From assembly GCF_009931435.1 (NCBI RefSeq), contig NZ_CP043414.1: a DNA stretch of 64,000 nt. One strand, given 5' to 3'. The notes under the pieces were generated by a model. That model worked only from the letters and a program-made list of their open reading frames with translations, was not told the DNA's origin and did not search any database. A program made the translations under genes and the position numbers. Source of the DNA: Escherichia coli. Its GTDB lineage: Bacteria; Pseudomonadota; Gammaproteobacteria; Enterobacterales; Enterobacteriaceae. This document shows positions 28,291-31,121 of the stretch, piece by piece (positions within the stretch are counted from its first letter, which is position 1; each line of letters starts with the position of its first letter).

Positions 28291-28848
28291 TCAGAACTGC
28301 ATCAGTTCTGCTTCTTTGTCTGCCAGCGCCGCTTCAATTTTCTTGATTGCAGCATCAGTCAGTTTCTGTACATCGTCCTGAGAACGGCGATCGTCGTCTT
28401 CGCTGATCTCTTTATCTTTCAACAGTGCTTTCACTTTGTCGTTCGCGTCACGACGCACGTTACGTACTGCAACACGCGCTTGTTCTGCTTCACCACGAAC
28501 GATTTTGGTCAGATCTTTACGACGTTCTTCCGTCAGCGGCGGCAGCGGAACACGGATGTCGCTACCCGCAGAGTTCGGGTTCAGGCCAAGATCGGACGCC
28601 ATAATCGCTTTTTCAACGGCCGGAGACATTGAACGATCAAACACGTTGATTTTCAGAGTACGGGAATCTTCTACCGTTACGCTTGCCAGCTGACGCAGCG
28701 GCGTCGGCGTGCCGTAATATTCCACGACAATGCCATCCAGCAGGCTGGGAGAAGCACGACCCGTGCGTATTTTGCTGATTTGGGTTTTGAACGCTTCTAC
28801 GCATTTATCCATGCGTACTTCAGCATCTTTTCTGATATCGCTAATCAC
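28291..28848 (-). CDS. frr: Ribosome recycling factor
   Basis: 185-aa ORF starting at GTG ([16 protein letters not shown]...); recognised RRF. Confidence 0.96.
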
Positions 28849-29139
28849 GTTACGAATCCTTGAAAACTTGTCTCAGTCAGACCAGACAGTCACACACAGT
28901 GGAAGTGTGCTAAGTATAGCCCTGATTAAACATATTACGGGTAATCGTCTGGATTATTAGGCTATTTTATTTGCCATTTTGGCCCCGGGCAGTGCTCGCC
29001 ATCCTCACGTACTTGTGTACGCTCCGGTTGCTGCGCGCTGGCCGTGACCAAACTGCCTGCAACAATAACGCCTTATAACCAGACTTACGCCCCCGCGATA
29101 CTTACGCGGAATCTTACCCTTATTTATCCATCACGGGAA

Positions 29140-29865
29140 TTATTCCGTGATTAAAGTCCCTTCTTTTTCACCCATTACCACACGGCGCAGCGCACCCGGT
29201 TTGTTCATATTGAAAACACGAATCGGTAATTTATGGTCACGAGCCAGCGTGAAGGCCGCCAGGTCCATGACTTTCAGCTCTTTTTCCAGCACTTCGCTGT
29301 AAGTCAGTTGCTCGTACATCGTTGCGGTTGGATCTTTCGCCGGATCAGCAGTAAACACGCCGTCAACTTTGGTTGCTTTCAGCACCACATCGGCTTCAAT
29401 TTCGATACCACGCAGGCAAGCTGCAGAGTCGGTGGTAAAGAACGGGTTACCTGTACCGGCGGAGAGGATCACCACACGATTGTTGCGCAACAGGCTAATC
29501 GCTTCTGCCCAGCTGTAGCTGTCGCACACGCCATTCAATGGAATAGCGGACATCAGACGAGCGTTCACATAGGCGCGGTGCAGTGCATCACGCATTGCCA
29601 GGCCGTTCATTACGGTCGCCAGCATCCCCATGTGGTCGCCCACAACGCGGTTCATACCCGCTTTCGCCAGACCAGCGCCACGGAACAGGTTACCCCCACC
29701 AATCACCACACCAACCTGAATACCCAGTTCAACCAGTTCTTTGATTTCCTGAGCCATGCGATCCAGTATGCTTGCATCAATACCGAAGCCTTCCGTGCCC
29801 TGCAGAGCTTCGCCACTCAACTTAAGCAGAATGCGTTTATAGACGGGTTTTGCATTGGTAGCCAT
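29140..29865 (-). CDS. pyrH: UMP kinase
   Basis: 241-aa [24 protein letters not shown]...; recognised PyrH. Confidence 0.96.
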
Positions 29866-30918: not shown

Positions 30919-30946
30919 TGAAAAAGGGGGCCATATGCAGGCCCCC
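30919..30946 (-). terminator. Attenuator-type intrinsic terminator in rpsB-tsf intergenic region
   Basis: Minus strand: GGGGGCCtgcatatGGCCCCC perfect 7-bp GC stem followed by TTTTTCAC, just upstream of tsf start. Confidence 0.65.
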
Positions 30947-31030
30947 TAACCAAACGTGTACTACCTGGTCTATAAGGGCTCTCCCCCCTTCATATTTCGC
31001 GCCGCAGATGCGTTGTCTTCGCTCGCTCAT

Positions 31031-31070
31031 CCCGGTCACTTACTGATGTAAGCTCCCGGGAATTCTCGAG
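31031..31070. repeat. boxC-like imperfect palindromic repeat in rpsB-tsf spacer
   Basis: CCCGGTCACTTACTGATGTAAGCTCCCGGG palindrome; 3' arm continues into CCCGGGAATTCTCGAG. Confidence 0.5.
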
Positions 31071-31121
31071 CTTGCCGCCTTTCTGCAACTCGAACTATTT
31101 TGGGGGAGTTATCAAGCCTTA

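Follow-up and report, generated by a model that had tools for sequence, protein, structure and literature searches.

Why is frr, the gene of the ribosome recycling factor (RRF), separated from pyrH by 291 bp in Escherichia coli, and does the GC-rich palindromic sequence lying between the two genes belong to the control of frr? The question was raised by an earlier note on a 64,000-nt stretch of the contig NZ_CP043414.1 (the window), made from the sequence alone, which suggested that the spacer could be a long structured 5' UTR or an attenuator tuning frr relative to pyrH. The best explanation, which we hold to be very probably correct, is another one: an ancestral regulatory spacer that carries a near-neutral, co-transcribed, MITE-like palindromic repeat.

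The genes form part of a minus-strand cluster, rpsB-tsf-pyrH-frr-dxr-ispU-cdsA, according to the ORF list and the K-12 annotation. The spacer (28849-29139, minus strand) has an equivalent of identical length in K-12 MG1655 (192581-192871), and window positions are converted by the formula K-12 coordinate = 192581 + (29139 - window coordinate). No annotated feature, repeats included, is given for the spacer in the K-12 RefSeq records. The description of a 291-bp spacer with no substantial ORF was confirmed, since the only ORFs touching it are three mechanical ones of 32-36 aa, and so were the GTG start of frr (ORF list and K-12 annotation) and the presence of the quoted GC-rich string GGATGGCGAGCACTGCCCGGGGCC on the coding strand, read from 29004 to 28981. 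That the spacer is unusual in its length holds in part: 291 bp is long, but the rpsB-tsf (258 bp) and dxr-ispU (185 bp) spacers nearby are long as well.

Table 1. Coordinates of the features discussed in the text.
Feature	Position in the window	Strand	Basis or K-12 equivalent
pyrH (UMP kinase) CDS	29140..29865	-	ORF list and K-12 annotation
Putative -10 box of the distal promoter P1, TAAGAT	29111..29116	-	TSS at window 29103/29104 = K-12 192617/192616
Insertion of 145 bp, palindromic MITE-like repeat, probably RSA-type, with ERIC-like design	28945..29089	-	Indel relative to the 149-bp allele
TA dinucleotides bounding the 145-bp insertion	29086-29087 and 28942-28943		
Quoted GC-rich segment GGATGGCGAGCACTGCCCGGGGCC, 3' arm of the repeat hairpin	28981..29004	-	Sequence, fold
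Minor TSS	~28923	-	K-12 192797, Cappable-seq
-10 box of the proximal promoter P2, TATACT	28913..28918	-	TSS at window 28906/28907 = K-12 192814/192813
58-nt leader of the main frr mRNA	28849..28906	-	Alignment, TSS data
Shine-Dalgarno sequence of frr, AAGGA	28857-28861	-	Sequence
frr (ribosome recycling factor) CDS, GTG start	28291..28848	-	ORF list and K-12 annotation

Two alleles of the pyrH-frr spacer

A megablast search with the spacer as query, run on 5,426 complete E. coli genomes of which 5,425 matched, demonstrated that the spacer exists in two forms. The full 291-bp sequence is present in 3,512 of the 5,425 genomes, and in about 1,900 (~35%), including the strains O157:H7, IAI39, APEC O2:K1, and MINF_1D, the block is absent and the spacer measures 149 bp. 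The alignment of four sequences showed that the short allele has the three bases ATC in place of the 145-bp block, with flanks that are identical in three of the four sequences, MINF_1D having one flank SNP. The extra length of the spacer is thus accounted for by the insertion of a 145-bp repeat. The junction sequence is GGGGG-CG-TA[...]TA-CCCG in the long allele and GGGGG-ATCT-TA-CCCG in the short one. When the filled and empty sites were compared, a clean target-site duplication was not seen (the left flank being CG in one and ATCT in the other), so either the event departed from a textbook TA insertion or the flank was changed afterwards.

The direction of the change was judged from orthologous spacers, which were obtained by Frr-anchored retrieval of loci from at least 80 GTDB species, a set that does not include Salmonella, Citrobacter, Klebsiella pneumoniae, E. 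albertii, or E. fergusonii. Among the matches listed, the spacer is 133-172 bp long in 11 of 13 other Enterobacteriaceae species, and in the remaining two it carries independent ERIC insertions; the 145-bp block is missing from the orthologous spacer in all 13 species listed. Further, the short E. coli allele is colinear across the junction with Pseudocitrobacter and Superficieibacter (GGGGGATCTTACCCG versus GGGTCACTTACCCG). Agreement of the short allele with other genera, both in length and at the junction, identifies it as the empty, ancestral state of the site and the block as an insertion. The opposite polarity, with a long ancestral allele in E. coli from which the 149-bp allele arose by deletion, is very unlikely: palindromes are readily deleted and the allele difference is not a clean insertion plus duplication, but a deletion would have had to recreate the ATCT bases, which the long allele lacks, and to arrive at the length and the colinearity seen in other genera.

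In the reading that we prefer, the starting state would have been a regulatory spacer of ~149 bp with two tandem frr promoters, the distal P1 and the proximal P2, and a sequence-conserved 58-nt leader. The repeat would have inserted between P1 and P2 in one E. coli lineage, and the filled and empty alleles both segregate within the species to this day.

Insertions of other repeats were observed at the same locus in other genera. In Enterobacteriaceae bacterium RIT691, the pyrH-frr spacer is 274 bp long and contains an ERIC in reverse orientation upstream of P1 (L008:2255-2352), and in Kluyvera genomosp. 1 a 275-bp spacer has an ERIC between P1 and P2 (L019:2292-2404). With E. coli included, there are three lineages in which palindromic repeats of different kinds entered the pyrH-frr spacer on separate occasions, a pattern suggesting that the stretch from pyrH to the main frr promoter is a permissive landing site. 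Long pyrH-frr spacers that match neither the repeat nor ERIC were also found in Brenneria roseae (254 bp, L028), Hafnia paralvei (190 bp, L033), and Shewanella kaireitica (262 bp, L050). Within the window, the 258-bp rpsB-tsf spacer contains a canonical ERIC/IRU (30986-31104, minus strand; 84% over 119 nt), which is followed by an intrinsic-terminator-like hairpin, GGGGGCCTGCATATGGCCCCC with T5 (30920-30946, minus strand), and a strong Term-seq 3' end, K-12 190800, falls where this hairpin ends.

A dispersed family of palindromic repeats and its hairpin

The block belongs to a dispersed, palindromic, non-coding repeat family. The nearest copy is that in the qseG-qseE(glrK) spacer, with 87-88% identity over about 115 nt. 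In K-12, the pyrH-frr and qseG-glrK copies were verified as sequence within the 157 kb scanned, and the sites speB-loiP, acpS-yfhL, and dsbD-dicD are empty, although they are filled in other taxa. Metagenome contigs were searched by a short-pattern scan followed by blastn and an HMM; the 120 pattern matches include many unrelated sequences that share just the short pattern. Full-length copies were found on these contigs in at least 12 distinct intergenic sites flanked by enterobacterial genes, such as rplT-pheS, lacZ-lacY, dsbD-yjdC, speB-loiP (in three taxa), acpS-yfhL, ugd, gmhA, rlmJ, and ybaN. Among the copies located between co-directional genes, four are in the sense orientation (pyrH-frr, rplT-pheS, dsbD-yjdC, and lacZ-lacY) and two are antisense (qseG-glrK and kduD-like/sbp).

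Concerning the design of the family, the copies are ~150 bp long, with 147-151 nt between the TA ends, compared with 145-146 bp for the pyrH-frr copy. Most of them start with a TAAGAGCC-like and end with a GGCTCTTA-like sequence, which are inverted repeats, and have TA at either end. The termini are mostly TAAG, TTAG, or TTAA at the start and CTAA, CTTA, or GTTA at the end, versus TA...TA in the pyrH-frr copy, whose terminal arms are GTCTGGTTATAAGGC and GCCTAATAATCCAGAC, compared with typically TAAGAGCCTATCCC and GGGATAGGCTCTTA elsewhere. The repeat has several features of a MITE: terminal inverted repeats, no coding capacity (the largest ORF touching it has 36 aa), at least 12 unrelated flanking contexts, and a filled/empty polymorphism of 3,512 versus about 1,900 genomes.

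Two copies contain an extra GC-rich insert of ~61 bp at an identical internal position (L197:5745-5928 and L108:490-706), and these inserts recall the nested insertions described for ERIC. Environmental contigs (L159, L131, L161, L141, L097, and L096) share with the repeat no more than its central 50-110 nt, and the partial matches are tandem or multiple in some of them (three pattern matches in L096, two in L159). These contigs may carry related repeat families of other bacteria, their similarity being partly forced by the pattern.

The cataloguing of small palindromic intergenic repeats in E. coli K-12 goes back to the 1990s. The original GenBank record of K-12 lists a repeat named RSA, of 150/151 bp and in six copies (PMC5172473, Table 1). 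This compares with a family consensus of about 150 bp between the TA ends and with six blastn places of the present repeat in K-12 (median 5 per E. coli genome), two of the six being confirmed as sequence; these figures were obtained with a blastn query displaced by 21 nt relative to the true indel; RSA is also intergenic, as is the pyrH-frr repeat. As length class and copy number both fit, the repeat is probably RSA, and we favor this identification with reasonable confidence. The element is then of an already known kind, and the six annotated RSA units probably include the pyrH-frr copy. What is perhaps unreported is its presence/absence polymorphism (65%/35%) beside an essential gene, the recurrent insertions into the same spacer, and the covariation of its hairpin described below. 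The RSA-type family is almost uncharacterised, and it appears here with clear hairpin covariation and a spread over several enterobacterial genera.

The repeat shares much with ERIC (also IRU or RU-1; 127 bp and 19 copies as IRU in the K-12 GenBank record, PMC5172473): both are imperfect palindromes forming a single hairpin with TA ends, intergenic, co-transcribed, and polymorphic as filled and empty sites among strains, and both have internal insertions in some copies and a similar central core motif. That the block is itself a canonical ERIC/IRU element is nevertheless exceedingly improbable. Its long imperfect palindrome, TA ends, intergenic position, and transcription fit the design, its centre GGAGCGTACACAAGTACGTGAGG resembles the ERIC core GGAGCTTACATAAGTAAGTGACTGG, and genuine ERICs occur in the adjoining rpsB-tsf spacer as well as in the pyrH-frr spacers of two genera. 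Against the 127-bp ERIC consensus (PMC2759123, Table 1a), however, the block reached only 61% identity over 70 nt (E 0.017, with 127 nt as the search space), whereas the rpsB-tsf ERIC, serving as a positive control, gave 84% over 119 nt with E 8e-33. An HMM of the family recovered 17 copies and none of the canonical ERICs among those compared at E<0.01, and the termini differ (TAAGAGCCTATCCC versus TATACCCAAAAT in ERIC). On the weak consensus identity and the HMM result, a canonical ERIC was rejected; the repeat is a separate sequence family with other termini, about 20 bp longer and with far fewer copies per genome.

Other known repeats were compared in the same way. REP/BIME elements, including the RU-3 of Delihas, are likewise GC-rich palindromic intergenic repeats found in 3' UTRs or between cistrons, but their units are about 35-40 bp long with a GCCGGATG... 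consensus, in contrast to the single 137-nt hairpin here, and this consensus was not found on reading the pyrH-frr spacer. RU-3 was rejected as a candidate, having a REP/BIME-like sequence. YPAL/RU-2 of Yersinia and Correia/NEMIS of Neisseria are MITE-like hairpins of 100-170 bp that are co-transcribed and show filled/empty polymorphism, but their sequences and hosts are unrelated; moreover, Correia elements carry IHF sites and promoters, and no such motif was identified in the present repeat. An Rfam covariance scan of the spacer (E<=10) gave no family match, the sole noise match being sX9 on the opposite strand (21 bits versus a gathering threshold of 44, E 0.21).

The palindromic character that had been attributed to the spacer proved to exceed chance. 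As RNA of the frr strand, the fold of the 145-nt block is a single hairpin, long and imperfect, with a dG of -57.8 kcal/mol, compared with -41.0 +/- 3.8 kcal/mol for shuffled sequences (z -4.5), none of 200 shuffles being as stable; the opposite strand folds similarly. The hairpin comprises 137 nt, at about 28947-29083, and in the predicted fold the GC-rich segment of its 3' arm pairs with GGTCACGGCCAGCGCGCAGCAACC at about 29049-29026. Automated repeat finding did not report this long palindrome owing to its gaps and mismatches.

The earlier note had also proposed covariation analysis of the spacer, and covariation was found in one place and not in the other: it is evident in the hairpin across 12 copies of the repeat and not in the orthologous P2 leader. 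Among these 12 copies, 94% of the cells at the hairpin pairs are paired, versus 22-38% in slid controls; 13 of 40 hairpin pairs are doubly changed, and the covariation score was not reached by any of 500 shuffles. For instance, the outer stem of the pyrH-frr copy is CTGGTTAT/ATAATCCAG and the common form is CTATCCCA/TGGGATAG, both arms being different. These data demonstrate that compensatory changes among the copies preserve the hairpin. On the aligned strand of the copies, G.U pairs are in excess over A.C, and selection on RNA structure could be the source of both this excess and the covariation.

Promoters, transcript ends, and the conserved frr leader

The expression data considered here are all published and all derive from K-12, a strain with the long allele. 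SMRT-Cappable-seq placed two TSSs in the spacer, at 192616 and 192813 (PMC6131387 supplement), and Cappable-seq gave scores of 93.9 at 192617, 39.7 at 192797, and 868.8 at 192814 (PMC4782308 supplement); the two main sites agree between the methods with a one-base offset. The distal start precedes the block by 14 nt and has a leader of 255 nt that includes the entire hairpin; the TAAGAT sequence would be its -10 box, judging from the spacing. The proximal start lies 38 nt downstream of the block, has a leader of 58 nt, and is ~9-fold stronger (869 versus 94 by Cappable-seq). No -35 match was found at P1 or P2, and a scan for consensus promoters and terminators was empty on the coding strand.

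Transcripts initiated at P1 have been reported to traverse the repeat as far as the frr terminator (two listings, with 475 and 556 reads), read-through from the pyrH, tsf, and rpsB promoters enters frr, and pyrH-frr co-transcripts are reported. Term-seq recorded 3' ends on the K-12 plus strand at 190800, 192871, and 192996 (PMC7815308 supplement). None is listed between 190800 and 192871, hence none within the block or just after pyrH, and this listing gives no terminator signal 3' of pyrH. The end at 192871 corresponds to window position 28849, the last base before the GTG of frr, and that at 192996 falls inside frr. A 3' terminus within the frr 5' UTR is also reported in PMC10687069. On reading the sequence, no U-tract was found after the repeat hairpin.

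Comparison with other Enterobacteriaceae located the conserved parts of the spacer. In the alignment, 9 of 11 Enterobacteriaceae spacers retain the P1 block GGTAAGATTCCGC and 10 of 11 genera the P2 box CTATACTTAG, Klebsiella sp. BIGb0407 having CCATACTTAT. Conservation is not limited to promoter elements, since besides the two -10 boxes the last ~45 nt of the frr leader (TGGTCTG.CTGAGACAAGTTTTCAAGGATTCGTAAC, followed by GTG) are near-invariant across the 11 genera. The Shine-Dalgarno context AAGGAT.C.TAAC is likewise conserved in the 11 aligned Enterobacteriaceae, all of which keep the GTG start (28846-28848). The P2 leader itself showed no consensus structure (-2.3 kcal/mol) and no covarying pair in the 11-genus alignment. 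The signals that control frr are the pair of conserved -10 boxes and, downstream of the repeat, the 58-nt leader; what had looked like a long structured leader, belonging to an essential translation gene, is corrected to a repeat insertion.

A long structured 5' UTR is a description that fits only a minority form: the block is strongly structured and does lie within the 255-nt P1 leader and the pyrH-frr read-through RNA of K-12, but the main TSS is downstream of it, with a leader of 58 nt that has no conserved structure. The further suggestion, that this structure is a dedicated 5' UTR or attenuator tuning frr relative to pyrH, we regard as scarcely credible. The location of the block within these RNAs, its strong structure (z -4.5), and the existence of an RNA 3' terminus in the frr 5' UTR would speak for it. 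However, the mapped end at 192871 adjoins the GTG and lies neither in nor after the hairpin, no internal 3' end or U-tract marks the hairpin, the P1 transcripts reach the frr terminator, and there is no Rfam match. Additionally, the block is a copy of a dispersed repeat and is lacking in about 35% of E. coli and in the 13 other species among the matches listed, and is thus not conserved at the orthologous position in these related genera. Being dispensable in a third of E. coli and absent at this site in other genera, the repeat is not an frr-specific leader or attenuator.

A short palindrome was observed at ~28891-28909, after TATACT, where it overlaps the main TSS and differs in each genus (also in L008-L016): examples are CACAC...GTGTG (E. 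coli), AGCACACCCGC...GCGGCGTGCT (Superficieibacter), and CCACAG...CTGTGG (Mangrovibacter). Across genera, the symmetry is kept though the sequence varies. As the 5' arm in E. coli is mostly upstream of the mapped TSS, this symmetry may act at the DNA level.

Functional status of the repeat

Within the P1 RNA and the pyrH read-through RNA, the co-transcribed repeat would fold as a self-contained 137-nt hairpin. In the predicted fold of the 255-nt leader, it is self-contained and the Shine-Dalgarno region is unpaired. We consider the repeat to be probably a near-neutral co-transcribed passenger, and any effect would be at most a modest one, on the stability or processing of the minority of RNAs that contain it. 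The RNAs affected would possibly be the P1-initiated fraction of the primary frr transcripts (~10%), together with the pyrH-frr read-through. For an effect of this kind on mRNA there is a precedent in the ERIC of Yersinia, according to the part of PMC2229807 that summarises De Gregorio 2005.

On this precedent, the hairpin might have been co-opted as an mRNA-stability or processing module for pyrH or for the long frr transcripts, in the manner of REP for upstream genes or of ERIC in Yersinia. We regard this as doubtful. The repeat is co-transcribed, compensatory changes keep the hairpin across 12 copies, G.U is in excess over A.C on the aligned strand, and sense copies outnumber antisense copies between co-directional genes by four to two, all of which is consistent with a function in RNA. 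On the other hand, neither 3' ends nor processing ends have been reported for the hairpin in K-12, the presence/absence polymorphism persists at 65% to 35%, and the qseG-glrK copy is antisense to its own operon; moreover, the symmetry of a palindrome can persist at the DNA level with no function in RNA. The broader proposal that RSA-type hairpins have been selected as portable RNA modules in host operons, acting, for example, as entry sites for RNase III/E or as a block to 3'-exonucleases, seems to us quite unlikely. If it were true, the pyrH-frr polymorphism would translate into heritable differences in RRF or UMP-kinase expression among E. coli lineages. Whichever applies, the 291/149-bp polymorphism is a natural experiment on the question of whether hairpin repeats affect neighbouring essential genes.

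Apart from the RNA, the passenger repeat would alter the geometry of the two promoters, by increasing the distance between them and by bringing more AT-rich DNA to the region upstream of P2. The P1 and P2 start sites are 197 bp apart with the insertion and 52 bp without it, and the region from -59 to -38 of P2 contains 64% A+T with the insertion versus 41% without it.

Finally, a 10-nt inverted repeat with 90% complementarity was observed between window positions 28911-28920 and 29095-29104. It has no conservation in other genera and may be due to chance. It joins the start of the distal-promoter transcript (TAAGTATCGC) with the proximal -10 region (GCTATACTTA), and it lengthens the base of the repeat hairpin in the fold predicted for the long leader.
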